64,000 bases of DNA from positions 12,609-76,608 of the forward strand of contig NZ_JBEKFG010000005.1 of NCBI RefSeq assembly GCF_050013435.1, given 5' to 3'. Made by a program: the position numbers and the translations under genes. The notes beneath the pieces were generated by a model that was given only the letters and a program-made list of their open reading frames with translations, was not told where the DNA came from and did no database searches. Positions 1 through 27,052 of this stretch are shown here, in pieces. Source of the stretch: Candidatus Binatus sp. (GTDB lineage: Bacteria > Desulfobacterota > Binatia > Binatales > Binataceae). Numbering within the stretch: position 1 is the first letter of the stretch; every line of letters begins with the position of its first letter.

Positions 1-88
1 CTCTCACGTCTGCCTCCTGCCGCTCCGGGCCGACGGCTCGCCGCTGCCCGACCTTCGCACGGTTGCGGCGTTCGCTCAGCGCTGAGGA

Positions 89-586
89 GTGTCGTCGATG
101 CGCCAACTGTTTTCCAGATTGCCGGTCCTGGTCCTCGCGATCGCGGTCGCTGGATGCGCGTCGCAAGGCGCGCAGCAGGCCGCGCAGGCCGAAGCCGCGG
201 CCGCCAAGGCTGATCAAGCCGCCGCGCATGCCGAACAGTCTGCGGCCCAGGCAACCGAGGCCGCAAACAAGGCGACCGAGGCGGCAGAACGCGCGACTAG
301 GGCGGTTGAAGACGCGACCCGCGAAATCAACCGCGTCGCCGATCATCTCGATCAAATGCGACGAGACCGCGCCGCCGCAAGTCACGGGCGCCGGGCCTCG
401 CACCTGACGAAGTCGGCCCGCAAGGCCGCGTCCCCGTCGGGCGCCTCAGCCTCTGCGTCTGCGTCTTCGGGCGGCGCCCCGGCCGCGCAGGCCTCCGCGT
501 CGCCCGCCGCGTCCGCGGCAGCATCCGCGACTTCCGACGGCGTCACGACCTCGGCCGTGGCCCCCGCGCCGCCGCCTGGGAAATAG
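89..586 (+). CDS. Ala-rich putative lipoprotein
   Basis: N-terminal signal peptide with lipobox (LAIAVAG-C). Long Ala/Gln/Glu helical region, then an Ala/Ser/Pro low-complexity tail. Overlapping ORFs in other frames look like GC-driven noise. Confidence 0.6.
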   Translation: MSSMRQLFSRLPVLVLAIAVAGCASQGAQQAAQAEAAAAKADQAAAHAEQSAAQATEAANKATEAAERATRAVEDATREINRVADHLDQMRRDRAAASHGRRASHLTKSARKAASPSGASASASASSGGAPAAQASASPAASAAASATSDGVTTSAVAPAPPPGK

Positions 587-605
587 CGCGCCTCGATCAA
601 GCGCA

Positions 606-1625
606 GTGGCTGAGCCAGTCAAATCGCAACCAGCCCGCACGCCGACCGAAGCCGACATTCGCGCCGAGAATCTCACTCCGCAAGTCCGCCGCCATACCTG
701 GATCAATATCGCGGGCCCGCTCGCCGCCATTTTTCTCGGAATTTTCGCGGCTGCGATGTACCTGCGGCCCATCGATGTCCTGCGATGGATTCAGATCTCG
801 CGGCTGGGATGGTCCGGGGTAGCCGAGAACGATCTTGCGCTGAAGGACGGGCTGATCACCTACCTGATCACCGGCGGCTACTCGGAACAGGAGCCGGTCG
901 TGATGATTCATGGGCTAGGTCCGAACGCCGCGCTGGTGTGGCGCGGGATCATGCCGCTGGTGGCGGACGCGCACTACAAAGTGATCGCGCCCAACCTGCC
1001 CGGCTTCGCCTCATCCGATCACAAGCAGGTCAAATATTCGATCGCGTACCAAGCCGAGGCGGTCGCGCAGATGATCGACGAGATGAAGCTCGATCACGTC
1101 AACCTGGTCGGCAACGATCTCGGCGCCGACGTCGCGCTCTACTACGCCGTCGAGCATCCCGACAAAGTCGAGCGGATGGTCCTGGTGTCGGGCGGTCTGG
1201 TGGGTGCGCGCGGCGCTGAAAAACTTCGCAAGGGGATGCTGCCGACGACGCCCGACGCGATCCGCGCGCAGGTCGAGGCGAGCTTCTTCGATTTGCCCCC
1301 GATGCCCGAATTCATTTACCAGCGCATGATGGGTGAACTCGGCAACGACCTTCAGGCCGAGACCGAAATGATCGATTCCGTGCCTCGCGACGAGGCGCAC
1401 ATCCGCTCCAAAATCGGCCAGGTCTTCAACACGCTCACGATCATAATCTGGGGCGCGAAAAATCCGTTCTTCTCGGCCGCCGAGGGCGAGGCGATGCACG
1501 CTGCGATGCCCGGTTCGGCCACGGTCGTCTTCAAGACCTCCGGCGCCTACCCGCAACTCGAGCATCCTGACGATTTCGCCGAGTCGCTGATCTTCGTAAT
1601 CAAGCAAGAAGAAGGCGGCCGCTAG
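606..1625 (+). CDS. alpha/beta-fold hydrolase, N-terminal membrane anchor
   Basis: 339 aa from a GTG start. One TM helix (INIAGPLAAIFLGIFAAAMYL), then HGLGPN oxyanion motif and a GNDLG nucleophile-elbow-like motif. Typical alpha/beta hydrolase layout. Confidence 0.8.
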   Translation: MAEPVKSQPARTPTEADIRAENLTPQVRRHTWINIAGPLAAIFLGIFAAAMYLRPIDVLRWIQISRLGWSGVAENDLALKDGLITYLITGGYSEQEPVVMIHGLGPNAALVWRGIMPLVADAHYKVIAPNLPGFASSDHKQVKYSIAYQAEAVAQMIDEMKLDHVNLVGNDLGADVALYYAVEHPDKVERMVLVSGGLVGARGAEKLRKGMLPTTPDAIRAQVEASFFDLPPMPEFIYQRMMGELGNDLQAETEMIDSVPRDEAHIRSKIGQVFNTLTIIIWGAKNPFFSAAEGEAMHAAMPGSATVVFKTSGAYPQLEHPDDFAESLIFVIKQEEGGR

Positions 1626-1787
1626 CAGTCCGCACGCGCGCTGCGGTCGGCACACTGGCGTCGGCCTCAGCCGGACAAAGCCAGTCATCTAGTTGTGGAC
1701 ATGGGCGGACAATTCCGATTGCCATTCCCGCGACAGGTAGTATTATGCCAAAAGCAAAACTGGCATCACTCCATCCGCTGACGTTCC

Positions 1788-2816
1788 ATGAAGCTCTCAA
1801 AGCCATTATCGGCGTTGATCCTGATAGCGTCGGCATTATTTCTAAGCGCCGGAAACAGCGTCGTCGGAAGTCCATTACCATCACCAGTTCCACCAAGGGC
1901 CGAAATAAATAAAGGCTTGCCCGAACAGAAAGCAGCACCAAGCCAGCGCGGCGAAACAGAGACTCCGGTGCGGCTGGCCCCAATCAATCCAACACCGGCT
2001 GGTGTAGTGAGCAGTTCCGCATCCGATCAGCAGGAGCAAAAATCCAAGCGCGAAAGACTCCTTCCGAGTCTCACCGACTGGATATTGGCAGGCGTCACTT
2101 CGGTCTATGCGGTAATCGCTTTCTTCACGCTGCTGGCGATCAATCGTCAGGCAAAGTTGGCTGAGACTGCCGCGATAGCGGCGCAGCAAAGCGCGGAAGC
2201 CGCGCAACAGCAAACAGGAACGCTGACTGCGACTCTCATAGCTACTCAACAAGCCGCCGACGCTGCCACGAAGAGCGCCGATACTGGAGAAAGGGCGCGC
2301 GTTGGCGCTGAGCGTCCACACATCATTGTGCAGGATTTCAAGATGGAAGGATTCAAGGAGAGAATCGAAGGCGAGAAAAAATCTCTCGCAGCACTTCCGG
2401 AACATCAACAGTTGACGATGCCGCGAACGCTGCGCCTTACGTTCAAGATAAAGAACTACGGCAAGAGCCCCGCTTTCCTGACGCAGTCGTTGATCCGGTT
2501 CGCGATGGTAGGTCAAATTCCGATTCCCTTCAATTATGGGCCATTGCCGCAACCCTCGCGTGGATGGATTCTTCCGCCCACCGAAGACCGCGCCAGTGAG
2601 CGGTTCCTCGAAGGCGGCCAATTGACCGAACAGAATCGAATGCTCGTCGTTGAAGGTAAGAGGCACTTGGTTGTATTCGGCTTTGTGAGATACGACGGTA
2701 TCTCTTCCAAGGAACATTTCTTCGGCTTCGCCTGCCGCTATGCTGTCGGCGTCGGGTCCGATCCGGGAGGTACGTTTTGGCCCATCGGCGACGAAAACTT
2801 TTGGAGATATTCTTAA
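1788..2816 (+). CDS. hypothetical secreted/membrane protein (no recognisable family)
   Basis: Signal peptide MKLSKPLSALILIASALFLSAG, an internal TM helix, an AAQQ-rich coiled segment and a C-terminal beta-rich domain. Lies in a visibly lower-GC stretch. The antisense ORF 1881..2882 is Arg/Ser/Leu junk. Confidence 0.55.
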   Translation: MKLSKPLSALILIASALFLSAGNSVVGSPLPSPVPPRAEINKGLPEQKAAPSQRGETETPVRLAPINPTPAGVVSSSASDQQEQKSKRERLLPSLTDWILAGVTSVYAVIAFFTLLAINRQAKLAETAAIAAQQSAEAAQQQTGTLTATLIATQQAADAATKSADTGERARVGAERPHIIVQDFKMEGFKERIEGEKKSLAALPEHQQLTMPRTLRLTFKIKNYGKSPAFLTQSLIRFAMVGQIPIPFNYGPLPQPSRGWILPPTEDRASERFLEGGQLTEQNRMLVVEGKRHLVVFGFVRYDGISSKEHFFGFACRYAVGVGSDPGGTFWPIGDENFWRYS

Positions 2817-2880
2817 ACCGCTAAAACACCGGCCTGTCACGTAAATCATGCCCACCAAAAGCGTGGGTGTTAAGCCCAAC

Positions 2881-2952
2881 ATAATCCCCTATGGGAATGG
2901 TTAGGGGTTAGGCTAGCTCAGATTGGGTTCCAGAACGAATCACACTGGTGAA
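2881..2952 (-). repeat. direct-repeat copy 1: orphan duplicate of the carboxylesterase 3-prime end plus downstream sequence
   Basis: Aligns to 3670..3756 at about 90% outside the heptamer tract. On the minus strand it reads IHQCDSFWNPI-stop, versus FHQCDSFWNLF-stop at the real gene end. Confidence 0.85.
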
Positions 2953-3012
2953 TGTCTCAGCTATCTGAGAACGTCGCCAGCGAACCCGTGCAGTTAGATT
3001 TGCCACTTTCAA

Positions 3013-3588
3013 CTATGGGAGATCCTCATCGACAAGTCGGCGATCCAAAGAGACGTGGATAATCTGGCTCACGACAGCGTCAGCCGGAATGTCCTTCACT
3101 GTGTCATTGATTCTGGTTCTAGGAATTACCGCACAGAAATCAAAGTCCCATCCCGTAACCGGCGCTGACGCATCACCAAATCGGCATTTTGCAGTCCACC
3201 CGTAACGCGATATTTCGGCATCGGGTTGAGGAAACCAACGCCTATCATTCGCCTTACCGGCCAGAATCAGCACTTGAACTAGGGCTGCCGATGGGTAGGC
3301 GAATCCCTTGACGATTTTGAATAGAGGCACCTTGCCGCCAGCGGGCGACTCAATGACGATCAACGGCTGGAACTCAGCGCTTCGCTGCCTTACTCCAAAC
3401 AGCACGGCCACAATCACAACGGCCAGAACTCCGAGCAAAAAGCCGAGCGCAGTATTTTGGAACGGGATGGCCTGAATTAGCCTGATCGCAATCACTGCGA
3501 CACCTGCGCGGATCCAATCGAACAGGCTCCACTTGAAGTACCATCTGTTAAACTCCGGCTCGTTAAGCCACGCACCGATTTTCGACAT
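3013..3588 (-). CDS. hypothetical membrane protein (cassette gene)
   Basis: 191 aa with two N-terminal TM helices and a soluble C-terminal domain. No motif I recognise. It is the only gene between the two repeat copies. Confidence 0.55.
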   Translation of the reverse strand: MSKIGAWLNEPEFNRWYFKWSLFDWIRAGVAVIAIRLIQAIPFQNTALGFLLGVLAVVIVAVLFGVRQRSAEFQPLIVIESPAGGKVPLFKIVKGFAYPSAALVQVLILAGKANDRRWFPQPDAEISRYGWTAKCRFGDASAPVTGWDFDFCAVIPRTRINDTVKDIPADAVVSQIIHVSLDRRLVDEDLP

Positions 3589-3669
3589 GCCGACCCCCTG
3601 ACGGTGAGATTACCTCTCCCGCCGCCAAGGAATAGCCTAGCGGTAGAGGCGCTATCCGTCCACTTCCGG

Positions 3670-3756
3670 ATAATCCACTATGGGAAGGGGTTAGGGGTTA
3701 GGGGTTAGGGGTTAGGCTGGCTCAGAAAAGGTTCCAGAACGAATCACACTGGTGAA
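3670..3756 (-). repeat. direct-repeat copy 2: authentic carboxylesterase 3-prime end plus downstream sequence
   Basis: Same sequence as 2881..2952 but with two extra GGGGTTA units. Confidence 0.85.
3687..3716 (+). repeat. (GGGGTTA)x4 tandem heptamer, canonical G-quadruplex motif
   Basis: Sequence is ggggtta ggggtta ggggtta ggggtta gg, i.e. four G4 runs with TTA loops. The paralogous copy at about 2899..2914 has only about two units. Confidence 0.9.
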
Positions 3757-5236
3757 AGGCGTTAAAACTGGACTCGACCATCGGCGCTGGCGGGACCAAC
3801 GATTGGAACTCATCGGCTGACTTGCTGTACTTCGGCCACGTCGGCTCGTTAGCCGAGTTTGGGTTGCCAGTCTTCGCGAACTGCGTCCAGTAGCTGATCA
3901 TCGCGTCGGAGAGTGCCTGCTGGTCGGTCGTAAATGGGAAAACGTCCCCTGTTACAAGCATTAGGTATTGAATTTCCGCGCCGTGAAAGGCGCCCAGCGG
4001 AAAGCTTACCCCTGTTACGGTGCCCGGAGGCGCGTTCTCGTCATTGAACTCGTAGGCATAGGTCTTCACGAATTTCGACAATAGCAGATCCGCATTGCGC
4101 GCTGGACAGCTGAAGACTCCGTCGGTACCCGAGGCAGCCAATGCCAGATCGCCGCTAGGGTAACTGGCATAGGGATAGTATTCCAATACGTACGGTTCCA
4201 ATTCCGTTGTCCACAGCGCAGTGACTGCATCCGCGTATTCACCGAAGGTCAGGATAGGATTCCCCGCTAAGTCGTACTCACCAGCTACGAAGTACCTATA
4301 TTCATCATGGCTGGAGCATCCGACACTTATCGCGACGGAACTGCCCGACGGCGCGAAGCCATCGGTTGTCTCTGCAGTCTCTATTGGCACGATAGCAGGA
4401 AAGTAGTCCTGGAAGTCTGTATACGATCCGCTCTCGGCGATCGCGCCGCGGAACAGATGTTTCGCGGTCGGAGACGCAAGATTGCAATATACGCTCTGCC
4501 CTCCGGCGGACTCACCGAACATCGTCGCTTTCTTCGGATCGCCGCCAAAGGCCTTGATGTTCTCCTGAACCCACTTGAGCGCCAATTGCTGATCCATCAA
4601 CCCATAGTTGCCACGTTCATGGCCTTCGGAATCGAGCGCGGCCTGGGCAAGGAATCCCAGCACTCCCAGCCGGTAGTTGATCGTGACAACGATCACTCCT
4701 CCCTGGTTCACGAGTGGAGTAGGGTCGTAAAGGTCGCCGCCGCCGGCCGTAAGTCCGCCGCCATGAATCCAAACCATCACCGGCAGGCCGCTTGGCTTCT
4801 TGCTTGCGGCGGTCGTCTCGTCGCCGGCTTGTTCTACCGCGTTGCCAGGTTCGGAACCGGACGGCGTGTAAACATTCAGGTACAGACAATCCTCGCTGCC
4901 AGTCGGTCCGGGCTGCGTGCACTCATTGCCGAATTGAGTCGCCTCGAAAGTTCCTCCCGCAAACTCCCCGAAAGCCTCTGGCGGCAGCCAGCGCAGAGGC
5001 CCCACGGGAGGTGTGGCGTACGGGATGCCGAGAAATTCGTCGACGCCATTAACCGTTGTGCCGAGCACCACTCCGCTTTGAGCGATAGCAAACGGCTCTG
5101 GGTATGACGCCGTCTTGGCCGATGCGGTCACTACCGGGCCCAGCGTAAATGCGCAGAAAGCGGCCAATCCGAGGGCAAGCTTGGAAATAACGCCACAGCC
5201 CTCGAGCCGCTGGTTCGCCGTCTCGCTGTTCGTCAT
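3722..5236 (-). CDS. type-B carboxylesterase/lipase, secreted
   Basis: Motifs GIPYATPPVGPLRW, EDCLYLNVY and the nucleophile elbow FGESAGG. Signal peptide after MTNSETANQ. The tracked ORF 3722..6112 is an artefactual upstream extension running antisense to the GST gene. Confidence 0.9.
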   Translation of the reverse strand: MTNSETANQRLEGCGVISKLALGLAAFCAFTLGPVVTASAKTASYPEPFAIAQSGVVLGTTVNGVDEFLGIPYATPPVGPLRWLPPEAFGEFAGGTFEATQFGNECTQPGPTGSEDCLYLNVYTPSGSEPGNAVEQAGDETTAASKKPSGLPVMVWIHGGGLTAGGGDLYDPTPLVNQGGVIVVTINYRLGVLGFLAQAALDSEGHERGNYGLMDQQLALKWVQENIKAFGGDPKKATMFGESAGGQSVYCNLASPTAKHLFRGAIAESGSYTDFQDYFPAIVPIETAETTDGFAPSGSSVAISVGCSSHDEYRYFVAGEYDLAGNPILTFGEYADAVTALWTTELEPYVLEYYPYASYPSGDLALAASGTDGVFSCPARNADLLLSKFVKTYAYEFNDENAPPGTVTGVSFPLGAFHGAEIQYLMLVTGDVFPFTTDQQALSDAMISYWTQFAKTGNPNSANEPTWPKYSKSADEFQSLVPPAPMVESSFNAFHQCDSFWNLF

Positions 5237-5407
5237 CCGTTCTGAATCCCCAATGGAACTTGCAACATATGCACAGACGGCCTCCTTACCGCAAGATCCT
5301 TTTTGGCCTCCACGGGTTCCAGCCGGGCCGGTAGGAGCGGCTTGCGCGCCGCGCAGTCGTCTGCGATAAGCGAGTTTGAACCTTCTGCAAGCGAGGAATC
5401 GACGACG

Positions 5408-6061
5408 ATGAAGCTCTACAACATGAATCTCTCGAACTTTGCCACCAAGTGCCGGCTCGTCATCTACGAAAAGGGACTCAACATCGAGATGGCGCCGATT
5501 CCCGGCGGCGATCTCCACTCCGCCGAATACGCGAAGATCAATCCGCTCGGTAAAACCCCGGCGCTCGACGTCGACGGCCTGCTCATCCCCGAGTCCGAGG
5601 TGATCAACGAGTACCTCGAGGACAAGTACCCGACTCCGCCGCTGCTTCCCAAGAGCCCCGAGGACCGCGCCAAAGTGCGAATCCTGACCCGATTCCACGA
5701 CCTCTACCTCGAGCCTCCCCTGCGTGCGCTGTTCGGCCAGATGGATCCGAAAACTCGCGACGAAAAACTCATCGCCGAAAAGGTGGCCGACTTCAAAAAC
5801 CGGCTCGACCAGCTCGAAAAGATGCTCGCGGGCGGCGGCTTCGCCTGCGGCGCCAACTTCACGCTCGCCGATTGTGCGCTGGTGCCCACGATGTTCTTCG
5901 TGACCACCCTGATGCCCGTGTTCGGGGTCATACCGCTCGACGGACATCCGAAGCTCGCGGCATGGTGGACCCACGTCCAGACCCGCCCGTCGGTAAAGAA
6001 GGGGCTGGCCGAGATGGGCGAAGCGCTGGCTGTGATGCAGCGCGGCGGCGGCATGCACTAG
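5408..6061 (+). CDS. glutathione S-transferase
   Basis: 217 aa from MKLYNMNLS. Thioredoxin-like N-domain (LGKTPALDVDGLLIPESEVINEYL) followed by a helical C-domain. Confidence 0.85.
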   Translation: MKLYNMNLSNFATKCRLVIYEKGLNIEMAPIPGGDLHSAEYAKINPLGKTPALDVDGLLIPESEVINEYLEDKYPTPPLLPKSPEDRAKVRILTRFHDLYLEPPLRALFGQMDPKTRDEKLIAEKVADFKNRLDQLEKMLAGGGFACGANFTLADCALVPTMFFVTTLMPVFGVIPLDGHPKLAAWWTHVQTRPSVKKGLAEMGEALAVMQRGGGMH

Positions 6062-6152
6062 GGATTCGTCCCGCGATTTTTTATCGGCCAAAAAAGCGGG
6101 GGTATCCGCCACGATGCTCCCGCGATCGTCACGGCACGAGGATGAACTGACT

Positions 6153-6914
6153 ATGGCTTATCTCGATCGCGACGGCGTGCGCATCTACTACGAACAGCGC
6201 GGCGCCGGGCCCGCCGTGTTGCTCTCGCACGGCTACAGCGCCAGCGCGCGCATGTGGGAGGGTCAGATGGATGCGCTGTCGGACCGCTACCACCTGATCG
6301 CCTGGGATATGCGCGGCCACGACCGCTCCGACTCGCCCGACGATCCGGCGCTCTATTCGCACGAGGCCACCATCGCGGATATGGGCGCAGTACTCGACGC
6401 TTGCGGCGCGAATCGCGCCGTGATCGCAGGCTTGTCGCTGGGCGGCTTCATGTCGCTGGCGTTTCATCTGGCCCATCCCGCGCGCACTTTGGCGCTGATG
6501 CTGTTCGACACCGGCCCGGGCTATCGGAAAGACGACGGGCGCGAGGGATGGAACCGGCTCGCCGAAAGCATGGCAGTCGCGTACGAGAAAAAAGGACTCG
6601 CTGCCGCCGGCGCCGGCGCCGAAGTGAGCGTTGCCCGCCATCGCAGCGCGCAAGGGCTTGCGCATGCGGCGCGCGGGATGCTGGCGCAGAAGGACGGCCG
6701 CGTGATCGAATCGCTGCCGGCGATCACGGTGCCGACGCTGGTGCTTGTCGGCGAAAACGACAAGCAGTTCCGGCCGTCGGCCGATTACATGTCAACAAAA
6801 GTTCCCGGCGCGGAAAAAGTGATCCTCGCGCACGCGGGTCACGCCGCCAATATCGATCAGCCCGCCGCGTTCAACGCCGCCGTGCGCGCATTCCTCGATC
6901 GCGTGACCGCATAG
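6153..6914 (+). CDS. alpha/beta-fold hydrolase
   Basis: Starts at MAYLDRDGVRIYYEQRG. HGYSAS oxyanion region, GLSLGG nucleophile elbow, C-terminal HAGHAANID. Confidence 0.85.
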   Translation: MAYLDRDGVRIYYEQRGAGPAVLLSHGYSASARMWEGQMDALSDRYHLIAWDMRGHDRSDSPDDPALYSHEATIADMGAVLDACGANRAVIAGLSLGGFMSLAFHLAHPARTLALMLFDTGPGYRKDDGREGWNRLAESMAVAYEKKGLAAAGAGAEVSVARHRSAQGLAHAARGMLAQKDGRVIESLPAITVPTLVLVGENDKQFRPSADYMSTKVPGAEKVILAHAGHAANIDQPAAFNAAVRAFLDRVTA

Positions 6915-7102
6915 CCGCAATCGTCAAGCGTCAGTTCGCTTCTTTGCCGGTGACTGGCTGGAGAACGGTGCCGCGAACCGGCATTATGTATGGGTTGCCG
7001 AGATCGGTTCCACGATCTGATTGGCGACAAGTTTGCAAACCTGATTGATCATCCAGGAGGCTGCTCCGAGATTCCTCGAGGACCCACGGGACCGATTCAA
7101 GA

Positions 7103-9550
7103 ATGGCTGTTCCTCCACTTTCCGAAATCAACCGCAACCTGTTCGACAAGCTTGTCGATCATCACATCCGGTTCTCGATGGCCAAGCGGCGCAGCGAGTT
7201 GTCGAAGCATGACTGGTATCGCGTGACGGCGCTGGTGGTTCGCGACATGCTGGTCGAAAAGATGCTGGCGACGCGTTTGCGTTTCGATCGCAACAATTCC
7301 AAGAAGCTCTATTATCTTTCGCTGGAATTTCTGATCGGACGCTCGCTGGAAAACAATCTCTACAACCTCGGCATCATCGACACCTGCCGCGATTTTCTGG
7401 CCGAGAACGGAATCGACCTGCGGATCCTGTTCGACGAGGAGCCCGACGCGGCGCTGGGCAACGGCGGCCTGGGCCGGCTGGCTGCATGTTTTCTCGATTC
7501 GTTGGCGACCCTCGATCTGCCCGGCTACGCGTATGGCATCAACTACGAGTACGGGCTGTTCCGCCAGGAGATTCGCGACGGTTACCAGGTCGAGCGGCCC
7601 GACGCATGGCAGCGCGAAACCTCGCCGTGGCTGGTGGCGCGCCCCGAGCAGTCATGCCGGATTCCGGTTTACGGGCGAATCGACCACCGCATCGATCGCA
7701 ACGGCGAATACAATCCGGCCTGGGTGGATCGGCGCGTGCTGGTCGGCGTGCCGTCCGATCTGCCGATCGCGGGATACGGCGGACGCACGGTGAACTTTGT
7801 CCGCCTGTATTCAGCCGGCGCGTCGGATGAATTCGATATGCAGATCTTCAACGCCGGCGATTACATGAAGGCCGTCGAGCAGAAGATGCTTTCGGAGACC
7901 ATCTCGAAAGTGCTGTACCCATCCGATTCGGTGGCTGCGGGCCGCGAGCTCAGGCTACTGCAGGAATATTTCTTCGTGGCCTGCGCGGTGCACGATATCG
8001 TAGGCGGATTCGTCGCTCGCGGTGAAGATTTCAGTACTTTTCCGTCGCAAGTGGCTATTCAGCTCAATGACACTCATCCCGCATTGACTATTGCGGAGTT
8101 GATGCGCGTTTTCATCGACGAGTACGATCAGGAATGGGCGATGGCGTGGGAGATTACGCGCGCCACGGTCGCATATACTAATCACACTCTTCTGCCTGAA
8201 GCGCTGGAACGATGGCCGGTGAGCCTGCTGGAACGAGTCGTGCCGCGCCATCTGCAAATCATTTACGAGATCAACCGGCGCTTTCTGGCGGACGTGGAGT
8301 CGGTCTCGCGCGACGATCCGGAACGCCTCAGGCGCTTATCGATCGTCCAGGACGGCTACGAAGTCCAGGTCCGCATGGCGCATCTGGCGATCGTCGGCAG
8401 CCATTCGGTGAACGGCGTGTCAAAGTTGCACACGGAACTTGTCAAGACGCGCCTGGTGCCCGATTTTTATCAACTCTGGCCCGAGCGGTTCAGCAACAAG
8501 ACCAACGGCGTCACGCAACGGCGATGGCTGTCGATGGCGAATCCGGGTCTGGCAAGCCTGCTCGACGCGACGATCGGTGAGGGATGGGCTATAGACCTCG
8601 GGCAGCTGAGCGCGGTCGAGAAATTCGCGGACGACGCCGAGTTCCAGCAGCGCTTCAGGGCGATCAAACGCGCCAACAAGGAGCGGTTGGCGAGAATCGT
8701 GAATCGGCTCGCCGAGGTGGACGTCGATCCCGCCGCGATGTTCGACATACAGGCCAAACGTATCCACGAATACAAGCGCCAGCTCCTGATGGCGCTGGGA
8801 ATCGTGCATCAGTACCTGCGGCTCGTCGATGACGGCGTCGAACCGCCGATGCCGCGCAGCTACCTGCTCGCGGGCAAGGCGGCGCCCGGCTATTGGGCGG
8901 CGAAAATGATCATCAAGTTGATCAACAACCTCGGTCAGGTGATCAACAACGACCCGAAAACACGGGAATTGATCAAGGTCGCCTTCCTGCCGGATTACCG
9001 GGTCTCGCTCGCGGAAAAAATCATTCCGGCTGCCGACGTTTCCGAACAGATTTCCACCGCCGGCCGCGAAGCATCCGGCACCGGCAACATGAAGTTCGCG
9101 ATGAATGGCGCGCTGACGGTGGGAACTCTCGATGGCGCGAATATCGAGATTCGCGAAGCCGTCGGTGCGGAAAATATATTCATTTTTGGCCTGACCTCCG
9201 ATCAGATTGAGGATCTCACGTTGAAGGGTGGATACCAGCCGCGCGCCTACTACGACGCTGACCCGCGACTCAAGCGGGTGCTCGACGAGTTGGCGTCCGA
9301 TCGCTTTTGTCCCGGCGAGCCGGGGCTGTTCAGATGGGTTCGCGACGCGCTGGTCAACCGCGATGACTATTTCCTGATGGCGGATTTCGGCTCGTATATT
9401 GATATCCAGTCAGAGGTATCGACTGAGTATCAACATCCGGAGATCTGGACGCGAAAGGCTATACTCAATCTCGCGCGGATTGGCGCGTTTTCGAGCGACC
9501 GTGCGGTTGCGGAATACGCTCGCGAGATATGGCATCTCGGCCAATCATGA
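7103..9550 (+). CDS. glgP: glycogen/maltodextrin phosphorylase
   Basis: 815 aa. Contains GNGGLGRLAACFLDS and the PLP-lysine region EASGTGNMKFAMNGA. Confidence 0.95.
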   Translation: MAVPPLSEINRNLFDKLVDHHIRFSMAKRRSELSKHDWYRVTALVVRDMLVEKMLATRLRFDRNNSKKLYYLSLEFLIGRSLENNLYNLGIIDTCRDFLAENGIDLRILFDEEPDAALGNGGLGRLAACFLDSLATLDLPGYAYGINYEYGLFRQEIRDGYQVERPDAWQRETSPWLVARPEQSCRIPVYGRIDHRIDRNGEYNPAWVDRRVLVGVPSDLPIAGYGGRTVNFVRLYSAGASDEFDMQIFNAGDYMKAVEQKMLSETISKVLYPSDSVAAGRELRLLQEYFFVACAVHDIVGGFVARGEDFSTFPSQVAIQLNDTHPALTIAELMRVFIDEYDQEWAMAWEITRATVAYTNHTLLPEALERWPVSLLERVVPRHLQIIYEINRRFLADVESVSRDDPERLRRLSIVQDGYEVQVRMAHLAIVGSHSVNGVSKLHTELVKTRLVPDFYQLWPERFSNKTNGVTQRRWLSMANPGLASLLDATIGEGWAIDLGQLSAVEKFADDAEFQQRFRAIKRANKERLARIVNRLAEVDVDPAAMFDIQAKRIHEYKRQLLMALGIVHQYLRLVDDGVEPPMPRSYLLAGKAAPGYWAAKMIIKLINNLGQVINNDPKTRELIKVAFLPDYRVSLAEKIIPAADVSEQISTAGREASGTGNMKFAMNGALTVGTLDGANIEIREAVGAENIFIFGLTSDQIEDLTLKGGYQPRAYYDADPRLKRVLDELASDRFCPGEPGLFRWVRDALVNRDDYFLMADFGSYIDIQSEVSTEYQHPEIWTRKAILNLARIGAFSSDRAVAEYAREIWHLGQS

Positions 9551-9590
9551 CTTGACCGGCGCCGAATCGAGCCGCGCGCGAAGCAACCGG

Positions 9591-10022
9591 TCAGGCGTCC
9601 GCAATCAGCCTCAAGCCCAGCATCGCCGCGGCGCCGCTGAGCGCATCGTCGAAGCAGGCGAAGCTGACCGACGATCGAATCGCCGCCTGGAGCAAATCGG
9701 CCGTTGCAAGGTGCAACGCGTCGTAGGCGCGCAAGCGATATTGTTCCGCCAGATCCCCCGCACGGCGGATCGTCGTGGCGTCGACCGGTAACCGATTGAG
9801 CCGGGTCCAGTCGCGCTCGAATTCGCGCTTGTGCCGCCGCAAGGCAGCGTCGTCGATGTCAGCCAGGCGATGCTTTCGCGCCAACGCCGACCTGGTCTCG
9901 ACATATGCGACGAGGCTTGTCGCAACCAGATCCGCCCGAGCCACCGCCTCCTTCACCTCGGTACTGCCCAGCTCTCGCGCGTAGAGCTTCACGAGAGCGG
10001 AGGTGTCCAGGTAGAGGATCAC
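9591..10022 (-). CDS. vapC: PIN-domain type II toxin
   Basis: 143 aa with the N-terminal MILYLDTSALVKL acidic PIN signature. Overlaps the upstream antitoxin gene by 4 nt. Confidence 0.85.
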   Translation of the reverse strand: MILYLDTSALVKLYARELGSTEVKEAVARADLVATSLVAYVETRSALARKHRLADIDDAALRRHKREFERDWTRLNRLPVDATTIRRAGDLAEQYRLRAYDALHLATADLLQAAIRSSVSFACFDDALSGAAAMLGLRLIADA

Positions 10023-10309
10023 CTCCGCTCCTGGAGCACCAACTCAGCAACCGCTTTCTGGCCTCGGCCGATAATGATTGGACGCGACGACCCACGAGGC
10101 TTGCCATCCCTGGCCGCGAGCATGCCCGGGATCCGCTTCAGACGCCGCTGGAGTTCCGAGGCGGCCGGCTCCGGGCTGGCCGCCGTAGCCAGCGCCAGCA
10201 ACCGCGCAATGGGCCGGCCACGCGAGGTAATTATCACATCCTCGCCGTTGTCGGCCTTCTGCAGGTACATAGATAGCCGCGCCTTGAACTCGCGCACTGA
10301 TGCTTTCAT
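10019..10309 (-). CDS. Phd/YefM-type antitoxin
   Basis: 96 aa. MKASVREFKARLSMYLQKADNGEDVIITSRGRPIARL is typical of Phd/YefM. Translationally coupled to the PIN toxin. Confidence 0.8.
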   Translation of the reverse strand: MKASVREFKARLSMYLQKADNGEDVIITSRGRPIARLLALATAASPEPAASELQRRLKRIPGMLAARDGKPRGSSRPIIIGRGQKAVAELVLQERR

Positions 10310-10311
10310 GA

Positions 10312-10335
10312 GACCACATTATAGACAATGTGGTC
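10312..10335 (-). promoter_or_regulatory. candidate vapBC promoter/operator
   Basis: 9-bp inverted repeat gaccacatt-N6-aatgtggtc. A perfect minus-strand TATAAT (10318..10323) overlaps the left arm and spacer of this repeat and lies only 8 nt from the ATG. Confidence 0.55.
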
Positions 10336-10369
10336 ACATCGCGCTATGGCGAAGGGCGATCTCCGGAGT

Positions 10370-11210: not shown

Positions 11211-13712
11211 ATGCCAGCCGCGGCCGCCGACCCGCTCGGCGGCCTGAGTCACGACGAGGCGGCGCGGCGCCTGAAGCGGTACGGGCCTAACCGCCTGGTG
11301 CGCGCATCGCGCGGCGCCGCAATCCTGGCGTTTCTCAGAACCGCCGCGGACCCGATGGCATTAATGCTGGCCGCGGCCGGCGCGGTTTACTACGCGCTGG
11401 GCGAGCGGACCGACGCGTACGTCCTGTTCGCAGCGATCGTTCCGGTGCTTGCCGTCGATGTAATCCTCGAGGCGCGATCGCGCACCGCTCTCAAGAAGCT
11501 TGCGGGCGTCGTCGCGCCGCGGGCGCGAGTGGTTCGCAGCGGTGTCCAGACCGAGGCTGCGACCGCGGACCTTGTCCCCGGCGATCTGCTGGCGCTGAAA
11601 GAGGGCGACATCGTTCACGCCGATGCGGTTGTGCGTTCGAGTTCCAATCTCGCGCTCGACGAATCGCAGCTCACCGGCGAAGCGGAACCCGTTTCGAAGC
11701 GGCCGTGCGAAACACCCGGAGCCATGCCGGATGCCGCGGAGGACAGCCGCGTGTATGCGGGCTCGCGCGTGCTCGAGGGCCAGGGGTTTGCCGAGGTAAC
11801 GGCGACCGGGGAGCGCACCCGCTATGGCGACCTGGCGCGCCTGGTCGCGGAGGTCGGCCCGCGTCCTACCCCGCTTGAGCGCAAGACCGGGCGCATGGTG
11901 CGCTGGATGGTCGGCGTGGCGATTACCGTTTCGGCGCTGCTGTTTGTCGTGCGCATGCTCGGCGGCGCGCCGGCGGGCAAGGCGTTTCTGTATGCGGTCA
12001 GCCTCGCGATGTCCGCCGTTGGCGAAGAGTTCCTGCTGGTGCTGACGATGTTCCTGAGTATCGGAGCGTATCGCCTTAGCCAGCACGGAGTCCTGGTGCG
12101 CCGCCTGGCCAGCGTCGAGACGCTCGGCTCAACCACCGTCATCTGCCTCGACAAGACCGGCACTCTGACGGCCGGCGAGTTCGTGCTCGAGGAGCATCTG
12201 CCGCTGGGGCCGGAGATGCCGGAGGACGCGTTGCTCGAGGCGGCCGCGCTCGCCTGCGAGCCTCAAGCCGCCGACACGATGGAGAGAAAGATTCTCGCCC
12301 ATTGCACGGAGCACGGGATCAACGTCGATGCGCTTCACTCGCGATGGCATCTGGAGCACGACTACGCGTTCGACCCGGTCGGCAAACACATGTCGCACGT
12401 CTGGAGCAGCGGCGACGGCGCCGGGGGCGCACAGCGAATCGTGGCGAAGGGCGCGCTGGAAGGGATAATCGAGCATTGCGATCTGTCGCAGGCGGATTTC
12501 GCTCGCGCCGAGAGCGCCAATGCCGAGATGGCGGGGCGCGGAATGCGCGTGCTTGCCGTGGCCGGCCGCGATGCGCGGCCGGGCGGATTCAACGGCGTGC
12601 GCGGGTCGGACGAGCGCGGGCTTCGTCTGTTCGGGCTGCTCGGGTTTCGCGATCCGCTGAGAGCCGCGGTTCCCGACGCGGTCGCGCAATGCCAGCGCGC
12701 CGGGGTGGAACTCAAGCTGATTACCGGCGACCACGCGCTCACCGCGCACGCAATCGCCGACGCCGCCGGAATCGCGCACAGCGACGACGGCATCGTCACC
12801 GGCGCGCAACTCGACAGCGTTGACCAGCCGGCCTTCGAAGGGCTGGTTCGCCGCTGCAGCATCTTCGCGCGCATCCGCCCCGAACAAAAATATGCGATCG
12901 TCGAGGCGCTGAGGCGCGCGGGCGAAGTCGTCGCGATGACCGGCGACGGGATAAACGACGCGCCGGCGCTGCGCCGGGCGGACATTGGCGTGGCGATGGG
13001 CCGGCGCGGAACGGAGGTCGCACGCGCGGCTGCGGACATCGTGCTGCTCGAGGACGATTTCTCCGCGATGGTCGCAACGATTCGCGAAGGCCGGATTTTG
13101 CTCGACAACATTCAGCGCGCCTTCCTTTACCTGGTCGGCTTCAAGGTGATGCTGGTATCGCTCACGCTGTTGGCGCCGGTCTTCGGCCTGCCGCTGCTGC
13201 TATTGCCGGTGAATTTGGTGTGGCTCGAGATGATCGTACACCCGGTCTCCGCGCTCGCTTTCGAGGGCGAGCCCGCCGTCGATGACGTGATGCGGCGGCC
13301 GCCGCGTCCTCCCTCAGCGCCGATCGTCGAGCGACCCGCCGCTTACCGTGCGGCTTTATCCGGGGCGCTGCTGACGGTGATGGCGCTTGCGCTCTTCGCG
13401 CTTCGACTCCGCGACGGCGAGAACTACGCCCGCAGCGTCGCGATGGTCGTCGCCGTGGTGGGGAGCCTGTTTCTGGTCTGGGCGGAGTACGCAGGGACCC
13501 GTCGATGGTGGCGGGTTCGCGCGCCGGAGCAGCGGCGATTCTGGCTTGTGATCTTTGCCGTAGCCGCCAGTCTGCCGGCATTCATGCTGACGCCGCCGCT
13601 GGCTAAGCTGCTGATGATCCGCCCGATTGCTCCCGCCGATTGGGGGATCGCAATATTGGCGGCGGCGATCGCCGTCGGTTGGCGCGCGTTCGGCACCCGC
13701 AGCGTCAGATAG
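11211..13712 (+). CDS. cation-transporting P-type ATPase (P2/P3-like)
   Basis: Phosphorylation motif CLDKTGTLT, hinge MTGDGINDAPAL and a TGE-type actuator motif (LTGEAEP). About 10 TM helices. ATG at 11211 is preceded by aaagggg; a TTG at 11193 is also possible. Confidence 0.9.
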   Translation: MPAAAADPLGGLSHDEAARRLKRYGPNRLVRASRGAAILAFLRTAADPMALMLAAAGAVYYALGERTDAYVLFAAIVPVLAVDVILEARSRTALKKLAGVVAPRARVVRSGVQTEAATADLVPGDLLALKEGDIVHADAVVRSSSNLALDESQLTGEAEPVSKRPCETPGAMPDAAEDSRVYAGSRVLEGQGFAEVTATGERTRYGDLARLVAEVGPRPTPLERKTGRMVRWMVGVAITVSALLFVVRMLGGAPAGKAFLYAVSLAMSAVGEEFLLVLTMFLSIGAYRLSQHGVLVRRLASVETLGSTTVICLDKTGTLTAGEFVLEEHLPLGPEMPEDALLEAAALACEPQAADTMERKILAHCTEHGINVDALHSRWHLEHDYAFDPVGKHMSHVWSSGDGAGGAQRIVAKGALEGIIEHCDLSQADFARAESANAEMAGRGMRVLAVAGRDARPGGFNGVRGSDERGLRLFGLLGFRDPLRAAVPDAVAQCQRAGVELKLITGDHALTAHAIADAAGIAHSDDGIVTGAQLDSVDQPAFEGLVRRCSIFARIRPEQKYAIVEALRRAGEVVAMTGDGINDAPALRRADIGVAMGRRGTEVARAAADIVLLEDDFSAMVATIREGRILLDNIQRAFLYLVGFKVMLVSLTLLAPVFGLPLLLLPVNLVWLEMIVHPVSALAFEGEPAVDDVMRRPPRPPSAPIVERPAAYRAALSGALLTVMALALFALRLRDGENYARSVAMVVAVVGSLFLVWAEYAGTRRWWRVRAPEQRRFWLVIFAVAASLPAFMLTPPLAKLLMIRPIAPADWGIAILAAAIAVGWRAFGTRSVR
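13643..13708 (+). repeat. 66-bp direct repeat, copy 1 (last 22 codons of the ATPase)
   Basis: 64/66 identical to 16505..16570. Confidence 0.9.
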
Positions 13713-13902
13713 GTTTTGTCGATCACGTCTGTGACCGGGCATTGTCGCCATGCGCTAACCGAGACATCGCCGCATCATCCTTTCTAGCCGGTCGCATTCG
13801 ATCCTTTGCATTCAGGCGGAGTACAATTGCCCAATGCCATGCTCACTTGGGCCGCAACTGGCTGGCGATGCGCAACTCTGCCGAACCTGAAGAGCTTCTC
13901 GA

Positions 13903-16481: not shown

Positions 16482-16504
16482 TCCGTCCAGCGCCGAAACC
16501 TTTC

Positions 16505-16570
16505 GGGGATCGCAATATTGGCGGCGGCGATCGCCGTCGGTTGGCGCGCGTTCGGCACGCGCGGCGTCAG
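16505..16570 (+). repeat. 66-bp direct repeat, copy 2 (orphan ATPase 3-prime end)
   Basis: Same frame reads GIAILAAAIAVGWRAFGTRGVS with no stop. Overlaps the stop codon of the convergent acyl-CoA dehydrogenase. Confidence 0.9.
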
Positions 16571-17799
16571 CCCTTCGGCAAGCCCAGCACGCGCTCACCG
16601 ATGATGTTGCGCTGGATTTCGCTGGTGCCGCCCGCGATCGTAAACTCCCGCGCGGCGAGTATCCGGCTGGCCCATTTGCCACCTTCGACGGCTCCACGCG
16701 ACCCGCTCTCCAGATTCGCGTAAGCACCGAGCATCTCGTCGGCGAACATCGCCATGCGCAGGCTGAGTTCCGTCGCGCACAGTTTCCCGATCGAACTCTC
16801 CGCGCCGGGCACTCGCCCCTTGAGCTGTGCGGTCATCGCGCGATAACGGCCGAGCCGGATACATCGCGCCTCCGCGGCAAATTGCGCGAGCTTCTGGCGG
16901 ATGTACGGGTTGCTCCACGCGGGCACGGCGTCAAAAGCCACGGTCTTCGCCAGCGCGATCAATTCGCCCATCGTGCGTTCCACCGGATGACGCACTCCGC
17001 CCGACGCCCGCTGAAACATCAGCGTTGCGATCGACACTTGCCACCCTTCGTTCAGCTTGCCGACCATGTTCTGCTTCGGCACTCGCACGCCGTCGTAAAA
17101 GACCTCGTTGAATCCCATCTCGCCGGTGATCTGCATGAGCGGCCGGATCGTGATTCCCGGACTGCGCAGATCAACCAGCAGATACGAAATTCCTCGATGC
17201 TTGGGCGCGGCCGGATCGGTGCGGACCAGCAGTACCTGGTAAGCCGCGCGATGCGCGTTGCTGGTCCATACCTTCTCGCCGGTGACCACGAACGAGTCGC
17301 CGTCGAGCACCGCGCGGGTCTGAAGTCCCGCCAGATCGGAACCTGCGTTAGGTTCCGAGTATCCCTGGCACCAGATTTCTTCGCCCGTGAGCATCGGCGC
17401 CAGGTAGCGTTTTTTTTGCTCCTCGGTGCCGAGCAGCATTATCGTCGGGCCGATCCGATCGACCGCGAAATTGTTCGCGCCGTACAGCGGCAGCCCGAGC
17501 CGCAAAGCCTCGTCCTGGTAAATCGATTGCTCGACCACCCCGGCTTCGCTCCCGCCCCAATTCTTCGGCCAGTGAAGCGCGAGATACCCGGCGTCGTGCA
17601 ACCGCCGATGGTACGTGAGGATCTTCTGCCAGAGTTCGTCGTCGCGGCTGTAGAGCAGGCTCTCGATTGTTACGCTTGGCGACTCGACCAGATCGCCAAA
17701 TAGTTCCGACGCCGTCGCCTCCATCCATGCGCGCAGCCGGCTGCGGAATTGCTCCTGCTCTGGTGTGTAGTCGAAGTCCACCGAACTAGACGTTTGCAA
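16567..17799 (-). CDS. acyl-CoA dehydrogenase
   Basis: 410 aa. C-terminal FTIAGGTSEIQRNIIGERVLGLPK signature plus a YSEPNAGSDLAG mid-domain motif. Confidence 0.9.
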   Translation of the reverse strand: MQTSSSVDFDYTPEQEQFRSRLRAWMEATASELFGDLVESPSVTIESLLYSRDDELWQKILTYHRRLHDAGYLALHWPKNWGGSEAGVVEQSIYQDEALRLGLPLYGANNFAVDRIGPTIMLLGTEEQKKRYLAPMLTGEEIWCQGYSEPNAGSDLAGLQTRAVLDGDSFVVTGEKVWTSNAHRAAYQVLLVRTDPAAPKHRGISYLLVDLRSPGITIRPLMQITGEMGFNEVFYDGVRVPKQNMVGKLNEGWQVSIATLMFQRASGGVRHPVERTMGELIALAKTVAFDAVPAWSNPYIRQKLAQFAAEARCIRLGRYRAMTAQLKGRVPGAESSIGKLCATELSLRMAMFADEMLGAYANLESGSRGAVEGGKWASRILAAREFTIAGGTSEIQRNIIGERVLGLPKG

Positions 17800-17825
17800 G
17801 CCGCCTGCCGGCAGCTGGTCCTGCG

Positions 17826-18335
17826 CTACGCGAACAACATTCTTCTGAGCGCCGGGAACAGGCGCATTTCCTCGCTATCGATCAAATCGTCGAGCTTCAC
17901 CGCCAGCACACATAGAGCTTTGCCGGCCACGGCCACAACTTTATCCGCATCTTTCTCGAACGACACTCCGTTAAGCTTGGCTATCAGCGAGCGCATTTCG
18001 AGGTGGCTCTGCTTGATTCGCTCGATCACCTCGGGAGCAAGGCCGCCGGCAAGTTCCGCCCACGGCAGCACTGTTTCATCTTCGCTCAACAGATGCTGAT
18101 TGAGTCGCGGCTTGAGAGTTTCCCAACAGCGCTGCGCCTGCGCACGCATCTCGCGATCCGACGGCTTGAAGCCCAAAATGGCGCCTGCCACTGCCGCGTC
18201 CAGCAGCCGCATCCCCAGCCGGTATTGTTCACGGTCCAGTTCTTCCGTGAGTTTTCTGATCTGGCCCGTGCCGGGGGCCTTTTCGGCCCCGATCGCTAAT
18301 GGCTTCTTGGCGGTAGTCATATTCATCGTCCTCAC
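17826..18335 (-). CDS. hemerythrin-like (HHE cation-binding) domain protein, tentative
   Basis: 169 aa all-helical protein with spaced His/Glu residues (NQHLLSEDE, KQSHLEM, EEMRLFP). Weak recognition only. Confidence 0.45.
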   Translation of the reverse strand: MRTMNMTTAKKPLAIGAEKAPGTGQIRKLTEELDREQYRLGMRLLDAAVAGAILGFKPSDREMRAQAQRCWETLKPRLNQHLLSEDETVLPWAELAGGLAPEVIERIKQSHLEMRSLIAKLNGVSFEKDADKVVAVAGKALCVLAVKLDDLIDSEEMRLFPALRRMLFA

Positions 18336-20318: not shown

Positions 20319-20326
20319 GCGGAGTC

Positions 20327-20614
20327 ATGGCCATGAGAAAAATATTCGCGGCAATCGTACTTGCGACTCTAACGATCGGATTTGTCGGCGCTCCCGCTTC
20401 GGCTCAGGAGAATCTTTCCCCGGCCGAGCACAGACGCCTGTTTCGGGAGGGCGCCCAACTCTGGCCGGTTTACTGCAACACCTGCCATAATGCGCGACCG
20501 GGATCCGAGAAGGCGCCCTATGAGTGGGACCTGATCATCATGCATATGCGCACGCTGGGAAATTTACCGGCCGGCGACACCAGGGCGCTGGTGGAATACC
20601 TCAAGGCCCGTTGA
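20327..20614 (+). CDS. monoheme cytochrome c
   Basis: 95 aa with signal peptide and a single CNTCH motif. GGAG lies 5 nt upstream of the ATG. Confidence 0.8.
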   Translation: MAMRKIFAAIVLATLTIGFVGAPASAQENLSPAEHRRLFREGAQLWPVYCNTCHNARPGSEKAPYEWDLIIMHMRTLGNLPAGDTRALVEYLKAR

Positions 20615-20653
20615 ATCGCCCTCGGCGGCGCGAACATTGAACCGGAGGACAAC

Positions 20654-21010
20654 GTGAACCGACTTATCTCGACCATTGGTGTGTGCGCGATCATCGCATG
20701 CGCGTTTGTGCCTGCGCGCGCGGCCGACATGGCTGCCGCCAAGCAGAGCTACAATACGTTTTGTATGAAGTGCCACGGCACCGATGGCCAAGGCGACGGT
20801 GCTGCCGCGGCTACCCTTGCCACCAAGCCTCGCAATTTCACTGATTGCGCGACGATGGGCAAGATTACCGACGAGACCCTGTTCAACGCGATCAAGAACG
20901 GCGGCGCCTCGGTTGGTCTCAGCAAAGATATGCAGGCGTGGAGCACCGGTTTCGGGGACGACGAGATCCACGACCTCGTCGCTTACGTCAGGGCCTTCTG
21001 CAAGAAGTAA
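20654..21010 (+). CDS. class I monoheme cytochrome c
   Basis: 118 aa from a GTG start after GGAGG. Signal peptide, CMKCH heme site, distal Met region (SKDMQAW). Confidence 0.85.
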   Translation: MNRLISTIGVCAIIACAFVPARAADMAAAKQSYNTFCMKCHGTDGQGDGAAAATLATKPRNFTDCATMGKITDETLFNAIKNGGASVGLSKDMQAWSTGFGDDEIHDLVAYVRAFCKK

Positions 21011-21021
21011 GCGCGACCTCG

Positions 21022-25700: not shown

Positions 25701-26126
25701 ATGAAGCTGAAATTGTTGGCGTCAATCTTTGCGCTAGGCGCCGCGCTGTCCGTCGCGCAGCCCGCGCTGTCTGCGGGCAATGACGTGAGCGACGGGCACC
25801 GTTATTTCCTTCGCTACTGTGCGTCATGCCATGGTCTGGACGGTCTCGGAGACGGTCCGGTGGCGAAGAGCCTGTCCACGCCGCCGACAAGTCTGCGCAA
25901 GCTCGGCGACAAATATGGCGTGCCGCTGCCGGCGCATCGCATAGCCGAACTGATAGACGGTCGAGATACACCCAGGGCGCATGGGACTCACGAGATGCCG
26001 GTATGGGGAGAGCGCCTTTACGAGCTTGGCCAGGGTGAAAGGGGCGAATACGGGATCGGTGAAGTGATCGGCAAAATTATTGCCTACCTCAACATGATTC
26101 AGGATCGCCGAACTGCGATGCGATAA
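25701..26126 (+). CDS. monoheme cytochrome c
   Basis: Signal peptide, CASCH motif, HEMPVW distal Met region. Confidence 0.85.
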   Translation: MKLKLLASIFALGAALSVAQPALSAGNDVSDGHRYFLRYCASCHGLDGLGDGPVAKSLSTPPTSLRKLGDKYGVPLPAHRIAELIDGRDTPRAHGTHEMPVWGERLYELGQGERGEYGIGEVIGKIIAYLNMIQDRRTAMR

Positions 26127-27046: not shown

Positions 27047-27052
27047 GTCGAG

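Follow-up and report, generated by a model that had tools for sequence, protein, structure and literature searches.

How can the end of a gene come to stand twice, in direct orientation, on either side of a small insert that carries no recombinase? The question is raised by a 64,000-nucleotide stretch of DNA from Candidatus Binatus sp. (hereafter the window, positions 12609-76608 of contig C5 in a 150-contig metagenome bin of 3.57 Mb and 62% G+C), in which the 3' end of a carboxylesterase gene is repeated on the far side of a one-gene cassette. An earlier note, made from the letters of the window, had described this as an insertion scar far longer than any target duplication made by a transposase. 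We find that the cassette belongs to an IS1595-family cargo transposon, one of two whose remnants stand side by side between the esterase gene and its ancestral neighbour. The repeat is probably a by-product of two joints of different kinds placed about 63 nt apart in the target, one made by a transposase and the other an illegitimate joint at a microhomology. This degree of confidence holds for the anatomy and for the two-joint reading taken together, and for none of the particular routes considered below.

A repeat search placed the two copies at 2881-2952 and 3670-3756, as had been noticed by eye, and pairwise alignment gave 93% identity over a 54-nt core (2899-2952 / 3703-3756) and 81% over the 27 nt of the left part (2881-2907 / 3670-3696), with two GGGGTTA heptamers in the first copy (copy A) and four in the second (copy B). 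A 27-nt pattern of the core matched twice, for none expected from 100 shuffles, and no third full copy exists across the 3.57-Mb genome. The single open reading frame (ORF) between the copies is the 191-aa gene, and copy A, the orphan, does read IHQCDSFWNPI-stop: it retains 10 codons and the stop of the esterase, i.e. 33 nt of the gene. The native part of the two spans is indeed duplicated esterase end and downstream DNA, but their leftmost 9 nt (ATAATCCCC and ATAATCCAC) are not native: they are the tips of two distinct transposon inverted repeats. As the motif ATAATCC(C/A)C common to both copies is a homologous transposon tip, the native duplication is limited to 63 nt in copy A and 78 nt in copy B (Table 1), the difference corresponding to two heptamers. 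The native DNA of the two copies differs at 5 of 63 positions. The terminal codon of copy A is now Ile while Phe is found in copy B and in all relatives; by this comparison copy A is the one that has drifted.

The (GGGGTTA)n tract itself belongs to the original spacer between hydrolase and esterase in the genus (2 units in the relative G002). It has grown to 4 units in the functional copy only (3687-3716; the tract of copy A lies at 2899-2912), a number constant over 10 metagenome samples, and another short tract is seen at C55:25108-25142, behind a hairpin. With two full copies only and a heptamer tract at just one other place, the repeat is not a genome-wide repetitive extragenic palindrome (REP) or miniature inverted-repeat transposable element. 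Neither is it an RNA gene or a tRNA-type attachment (att) site, both ruled out by an Rfam scan of 2700-3900 that returned no RNA gene and by a tRNA scan of 1-10000 that was equally empty.

As the genome is a metagenome bin in many contigs, an assembly artefact had to be considered, and with it the remnant of a second esterase paralogue. The exact sequence of the 191-aa protein occurs in 66 blocks of the public collection, and 10 independently assembled metagenome contigs (JGI and ENA), from different samples and pipelines, carry repeats letter-identical to those of the window. All 10 show the order esterase - copy B - 191-aa gene - copy A - 342-aa gene - hydrolase; searches for identical copies of the esterase and of the 342-aa protein returned the same arrangement every time and no other. 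Because it is identical in at least 10 independent assemblies, the repeat structure is not an assembly artefact; it is real and fixed in the species. As to a paralogue, a conserved second esterase in related genomes would have argued against an insertion, but no relative has one at this site and the orphan comprises only the 33-nt gene end. We give practically no credit to either of these explanations.

The genomes of the closest species (G002, G013 and G007, ~90% DNA identity, syntenic over window positions 1-34.7 kb) show the site without its insert. The alpha/beta-hydrolase gene is there directly convergent with the esterase gene, over a spacer of about 60-70 nt that holds one copy of the segment; the esterases are orthologues, which at the amino acid level are 74-76% identical in full-length comparison and 82-85% when just the aligned blocks are counted, with ~90% nucleotide identity. 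This empty, single-copy site bears out the idea of an insertion scar. In a survey of 47 Candidatus Binatus species (46 besides that of the window), the hydrolase-esterase distance was 13-109 nt in 11 species, other small inserts were present at the same spot in 5 species, and the two extra genes of the window were absent from the site in all 46 other genomes. Gene order thus designates the hydrolase as the ancestral convergent neighbour of the esterase and, the two being adjacent in relatives, the whole 2.1 kb between them (1626-3721) is inserted. The earlier note had foreseen an empty site with the esterase convergent with the gene at 1788; such a site exists, but the neighbour is the hydrolase, and the gene at 1788 (the 342-aa gene) is itself part of the insert. 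The G+C content of the insert is 0.54 against 0.62 for the genome.

In G002 the native spacer can fold into a hairpin of 10 bp (CCCCUUCCCA-UCG-UGGGAAGGGG, -24 kcal/mol, z -2.25), after which the heptamers come; by its position this hairpin is a bidirectional terminator. Copies A and B each keep its esterase-side arm only: the insertion took place in the loop of the hairpin, so that the native terminator is split, and no good hairpin is found in the window 3' of the esterase stop (z +1.15). Since the 191-aa gene lies on the esterase strand, 133 nt downstream, read-through from the esterase and co-transcription are likely. The esterase transcript now probably runs into the 191-aa gene and ends at the transposon hairpin behind it, whose predicted stability is -26.6 kcal/mol (z -1.98).

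This transposon hairpin (CGCTGGCG-ACGT-TCTCAG-ATAG-CTGAGA-CATT-C(A/G)CCAGTG) occurs once more in the genome, in C46, behind an unrelated ORF, and at 14 loci in other Binataceae. In most of these 14 loci it stands directly 3' of the stop of a convergent protein of 310-330 aa with the domains PF12762 (DDE_Tnp_IS1595) and PF12760, while its other side is occupied each time by a different ORF (106-447 aa, ending 12-40 nt off; L068-L080 and C46). Seven complete units could be delimited, each of ~2 kb and each with an 8-bp duplication, in the order right inverted repeat, passenger gene, hairpin, opposite-strand transposase and left inverted repeat. Their inverted repeats read GGGGATTATCCGG..GTTGAC and a left transposon end reads GGGGATTAT...; a strict regular expression for the inverted repeat was too narrow to find element ends usefully. 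The 8-bp duplications are perfect in five units (TATGCAAA, TTGAGTTA, TTCTTCTA, CTAAAAAT, ACTTTAGT) and match at 7 of 8 positions in the two others. As judged from this organisation, the intact relatives are cargo-carrying IS1595 elements, a known type. Such IS1595-family transporter insertion sequences (IS), or tIS, were reportedly described by Siguier, Gagnevin and Chandler in 2009. The DDE_Tnp_IS1595 and zinc-ribbon transposase, the inverted repeats, the 8-bp duplication and the variable passengers of the intact relatives all fit this type. The copies of the window, on the other hand, have neither transposase nor left end, are not self-mobile and go with a repeat of 63/78 nt instead of 8 bp: they are remnants, not complete members.

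We also observe that several IS1595 elements (L068, L069, L073 and L101, and in the genome itself C46 and C28) sit in an AT-rich 8-mer (CTAAAAAT / ACTTTAGT) within a repeated palindrome (..CCTGAACTAAAAATGTTTCACGTGAAAC..). The palindrome is frequent between genes in Binataceae and likely a preferred target.

In the first remnant (IS-1), the 191-aa gene fills the variable passenger slot, between the right inverted repeat and the hairpin. DNA homology to other loci covers 2942-3622 (88% with L062, 96% with L101), which takes in 30 nt of leader, the whole gene and the 71 nt that come after it. Relatives of the gene are few and lie at unrelated loci, with one distant match among 165 family genomes; the gene moves with the hairpin at L062, L101 and L067, and is found within another IS1595 subtype at L102, so that the cassette does exist elsewhere, and at these other sites it has no such long repeat. 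The second remnant (IS-2) carries the 342-aa gene, behind a leader (about 1640-1787) that is conserved at the loci of the homologues (L105, L108 and L107) and that in L105 and L108 comes after ATAGCAGGATGCTGA, which encodes the transposase end ...IAGC*. No transposase ORF exists between 1626 and 3721, and a left-end inverted repeat was found for neither IS-1 nor IS-2: both have lost them. The cassette had been said to carry no recombinase, which is correct as far as the transposase is concerned, but it is the remnant of an element whose intact relatives do have a DDE transposase.

At one chromosomal site, between a VWA-domain gene and an iPGM gene, two close Binatus genomes differ in their passengers (C46:13615-14700 and L101:5660-6700): a 332-aa membrane ORF in the former, a copy 96% identical to the 191-aa gene of the window in the latter, with one and the same hairpin behind both, and then an identical truncated end of the transposase. 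These sequences suggest an exchange of cargo between conserved parts of the element.

For the 342-aa gene, gene callers divide the region variously (157, 299 or 342 aa, plus 55 aa). The calls of 157 and 299 aa in other samples are not mutated forms: translation gives the intact, identical gene and the callers merely choose different starts. The 55-aa ORF (1745-1912, + strand, MPKAKLASLHPLTFHEALKAIIGVDPDSVG...) overlaps the start of the gene in another frame, and its first ~30 codons are kept in L105 and L108, the L105 homologue beginning with the MPKAKLASLHPLTFHEALKAIIGVDPDSVG sequence; the conservation of these codons makes the true start and frame of the passenger gene uncertain. The 342-aa protein bears some likeness to the passenger carried by an element in C28, but this is weak (a 37-residue stretch, pairwise E=7e-4) and we do not claim homology.

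The right inverted repeat of IS-2 ends exactly at 2889, where it abuts TATGGGAA of copy A, and that of IS-1 exactly at 3678, where it abuts TATGGGAA of copy B: both right tips touch the same 8-mer, and the left-side partners of the 8-bp duplication are gone. The orphan copy passes into the hairpin of the cassette at 2952/2953. With 10 nt up to the junction (marked by a slash), the sequence is CACTGGTGAA/AGGC in the esterase, CACTGGCGAA/TGTC in the intact transposon and CACTGGTGAA/TGTC in the window; over a longer stretch the esterase has ...ATCACACTGGTGAA/AGGCG, intact elements ...GAACACTGGCGAA/TGTCTCAG and the window ...ATCACACTGGTGAA/TGTCTCAG. The esterase end and the transposon hairpin share CACTGG(T/C)GAA, a microhomology of 9 out of 10 nt. 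As these alignments read, the duplication is bounded on one side by a transposase-type end, at an 8-mer of the target size normal for the family, and on the other by a microhomology that lies within the element. With a tip at one boundary and a microhomology at the other, the 63/78-nt repeat is most probably neither a normal target-site duplication nor the att site of a recombinase.

The same signature is seen at L108, where ~20 nt of the flank past the right tip (AACTAGGNCATCCCCAA) occur a second time, joined at AGC to the 3' end of the transposase gene, of which the final codons remain.

Table 1. Positions of the features discussed (window coordinates, unless a contig is named).
Feature	Position	Strand	Remarks
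Alpha/beta-hydrolase gene	606..1625	+	PF00561, E=1.7e-28
IS-2 remnant, IS1595-type cargo element	1640..2889	+	leader, passenger gene and right inverted repeat; without transposase and left end
342-aa passenger gene	1788-2816	+	no family match in Pfam, PADLOC, PHROGs or NCBIfam
IS-2 right inverted repeat	2867-2889		GTGTTAAGCCCAACATAATCCCC; conserved at equal distance behind the homologues at L105, L108 and L107 (unrelated loci)
Copy A (orphan)	2890..2952	+	8-mer TATGGGAA, two heptamers, esterase stop and last 10 codons; single copy in relatives
Junction microhomology	2943..2952	+	CACTGGTGAA; alignments with L062, L067, L101, C46 and 14 intact or partial elements
IS-1 hairpin	2943-2982		overlaps the junction; -18 to -27 kcal/mol
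IS-1 remnant, IS1595-type cargo element	2953..3678	-	hairpin, passenger gene, 5' leader and right inverted repeat
191-aa passenger gene	3013..3588	-	two predicted membrane helices; no family match in Pfam, PADLOC, PHROGs or NCBIfam
Conserved 5' leader of the 191-aa gene	3589-3622	-	alignment to homologous loci
IS-1 right inverted repeat	3658-3678		GTCCACTTCCGGATAATCCAC on + strand; matches inverted repeats of intact elements
Copy B (functional)	3679..3756	+	8-mer TATGGGAA, four heptamers (about 3687-3716), esterase stop 3722-3724 and last codons
Carboxylesterase gene	3722..5236	-	504 aa, PF00135, E=6.6e-96
P-type ATPase-end repeat	13640-13708 / 16502-16570		69 nt; brackets two transporter genes (MFS-type, ArsB/NhaD-like); one copy and no insert in G002 and G013
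Cytochrome c-end repeat	26087-26132 / 27321-27366		46 nt; brackets higBA; empty single-copy site in G002 and G013; no transposon ends seen
Other repeat-flanked insert	C13:51644-53201		174-nt duplication; higBA-like insert
Other repeat-flanked insert	C33:12710-13863		57-nt duplication; insert is a 290-aa gene
Other repeat-flanked insert	C8:5054-7046		86-105-nt duplication; insert is an amidohydrolase gene; insertion also present in G002

Could the repeat nevertheless be a true target-site duplication, an enzyme (this transposase or another) having cut the two strands 60-80 nt apart, with subsequent fill-in? Long duplications of variable length (39-193 nt) surround many inserts of this genome, and all six tested pairs proved to be insertions. 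Some IS4-family elements, IS1634 and IS1549, are moreover known to make long and variable direct repeats; unlike the remnants of the window, these elements are complete, have their two ends and encode a transposase. The flanking direct repeats of tens to hundreds of bp recall the present locus, but the family is different and the standard here is 8 bp. All seven intact relatives have 8-bp duplications, which agrees with the first impression that the repeat is far longer than the transposase would make, and the left junction lies inside the element at a microhomology, not at a terminus, in an insert devoid of left end and transposase. We therefore regard a long staggered cut as improbable.

Still less probable, in our view, is the site-specific integration of a small circular cassette by an integrase acting from elsewhere, the repeats being attL and attR. 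The prophages e14 and 21 integrate in the 3' end of icd and provide a spare gene end, which takes an integrase and a fixed att core; cis-mobilisable elements devoid of a transposase would be another model. Here too an orphan 3' end is found across the insert from a gene that is left whole, and an insert without recombinase would suit an enzyme supplied in trans; but no integrase is present in the insert, no att core is seen, and the segment is unique in the genome. The other repeat pairs of the genome differ from it in sequence and in length, the cassette does without such a repeat at its other sites, and the boundaries are exactly a transposon tip and a microhomology in a transposon hairpin. 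An integron gene cassette was also rejected, no attC-type site recurring and the two sole copies deriving from the native terminator and gene end (IntI was not searched for).

The last alternative makes use of two alleles and seems to us unlikely, although clearly more credible than the preceding ones. One lineage would have carried IS-2 at the 8-mer and another IS-1. DNA imported from the latter, anchored by homology in the esterase gene, would have been joined at its other end at CACTGG(T/C)GAA, trapping the terminator and the esterase tail of the recipient as the orphan. A single event then gives the observed structure, with the microhomology at the junction, and the 5 mismatches in 63 nt and the 2 against 4 heptamers are explained as divergence between alleles. 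Such homology-facilitated illegitimate recombination usually deletes recipient DNA and does not duplicate it. It was reportedly described in natural transformation by de Vries and Wackernagel in 2002. One junction at a short microhomology and foreign DNA beside a conserved gene are features that the window shares with it; on the other hand the second junction is here a transposase-type end. The two parental alleles were looked for and not found, each lineage would have had to receive its own insertion at precisely this nucleotide, and the drift of the orphan copy, which lost its terminal Phe codon, accounts equally well for the differences.

We thus favour one transposase joint plus one microhomology joint, and propose the following course of events. 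The empty site, the identity of the elements, their exact tips and the microhomology are shown by the sequences, while the order of events and the route are inferred. Two IS1595-family cargo transposons inserted in the loop of the terminator hairpin common to hydrolase and esterase, where a transposase joined the right end of each to the native 8-mer TATGGGAA; both now lack the transposase gene and the left end. In place of its missing left part, IS-1 has the native DNA of its right flank a second time, from the 8-mer through the heptamers to the final 33 nt of the esterase gene, fused to the transposon hairpin within the 9/10 microhomology. Three routes might lead there: (a) a broken element undergoes one-ended strand transfer, its broken end is joined at the microhomology ~63 nt away and the stagger is filled in; (b) a complete copy is excised and the gap repaired from the sister chromosome, the free end priming from the wrong 8-bp copy, so that synthesis runs on into the tail of the esterase gene before annealing takes place at the microhomology; (c) an unequal sister exchange at the microhomology yields a tandem duplication, from which the intact copy is later lost. 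Each of the three yields exactly the same product. No Ku gene was found, which makes classical end-joining unlikely.

Several points weigh against this proposal. If the donor had the usual C, the strict microhomology at the crossover is just GAA (3 nt), the 9/10 figure being that of a near-match. Neither an intact element with the 191-aa passenger gene (0 hits in the JGI metagenome contigs) nor the intermediate alleles, i.e. IS-2 alone or a full IS-1 at the site (0 hits in two metagenome scans), were found. The use of the same 8-mer by two elements is a coincidence that needs a strong target preference; the AT-rich 8-mers and the hairpin or REP loops in which the elements are seen suggest that such a preference may exist. 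Finally other long-duplication insertions, for example that of higBA (26133-27320), are without transposon ends, so that the mechanism may not be general and the link with IS1595 may be partial.

Inserts of this general appearance have been recognised before. "Insertion with long target duplication" was named by Nobusato et al. (2000, Gene 259:99) and surveyed by Furuta, Abe & Kobayashi (2010, PMC2853133): the repeats measured 46-423 bp, some of them over gene 3' ends, the inserts were restriction-modification genes "with no other mobile elements", and the mechanism was not given (PMC2853133). Our locus resembles these cases by its single target copy in related genomes (G002, G013 and G007), by a long (>30 bp), variable and unique repeat, by the overlap with a gene 3' end and by the want of a recombinase in the insert. 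It departs from them in that the insert is a transposon remnant, with transposon ends and a hairpin where the surveyed cases have no other mobile element, in that its boundaries are a tip and a microhomology, and in that the cargo is not a restriction-modification system. The locus is thus a well-resolved case of two known kinds, a transporter IS and an insertion with long target duplication. Long-duplication inserts free of recombinase have been catalogued since 2000 without a mechanism, and one of them is now available at base resolution. It also shows a cargo transposon leaving its passenger as a stable, immobile and probably host-transcribed gene, with both neighbours spared. If the proposal is true, the passenger is delivered without a transposase, and the fill-in duplicates the interval so that the two convergent genes stay whole; should it hold in general, a class of bacterial insertions that has gone unexplained for 25 years would find its explanation.

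The locus is not isolated in its genome. A genome-wide self-comparison gave 23 unique direct-repeat pairs of 39-209 nt, 0.4-4.5 kb apart, of which at least 13 have one copy over a gene 3' end; no end motif common to all the repeat-flanked inserts was found. Besides that of the window locus, the five tested pairs have duplications of 46-174 nt, and those of C13, C33 and C8, compared with four relatives, all correspond to insertions with a single-copy empty site (Table 1). Some of the Binatus long-duplication cases are linked to IS1595: the window locus, a second insert at C13, a pair in C28 and, as a candidate only, the insert of C33. From there one might speculate that long-duplication insertion is a main route of gene gain in Candidatus Binatus and that the IS1595 cargo elements reveal its mechanism, a transposase joint plus a microhomology joint tens of bases off, a generalisation that we consider unlikely. 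With at least six verified cases in this genome and 46 other species in the genus, the idea is open to comparative testing.

The other repeat-flanked inserts call for a few observations. The second insert at C13 is adjacent to the first, non-coding and 375 nt long, with a duplication of ~51 nt, and it matches DNA beside IS1595 transposases in C23 and C33; the insert of C33 includes a candidate inverted repeat-like sequence. In C28 there is a complete IS1595-type element (19792-22250), bounded by inverted repeats of 27 bp and containing, besides the transposase and a divergent passenger gene, a tRNA-like sequence (about 20126-20210). It lies within a segment of 4.5 kb on either side of which the 3' end of a gene is repeated (193 nt, 99.5% identical; 17725-17917 / 22435-22627).

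Within the window, a segment in the vapBC region (9564-10357) is replaced in G002 by an unrelated 670 nt; all other large indels of the 35-kb syntenic stretch have long repeats at their flanks, whereas none is obvious here. At the P-type ATPase site, G007 has the insert and both copies but not window positions 13702-13869, and this insert has a right end (GCTAGTCCGTCCAG...) similar to positions 3645-3660, the inner part of the IS1595 right repeat. At the cytochrome c site the same genome has a different insert of 1.17 kb, encoding a membrane protein that resembles a ligand-gated channel by composition.

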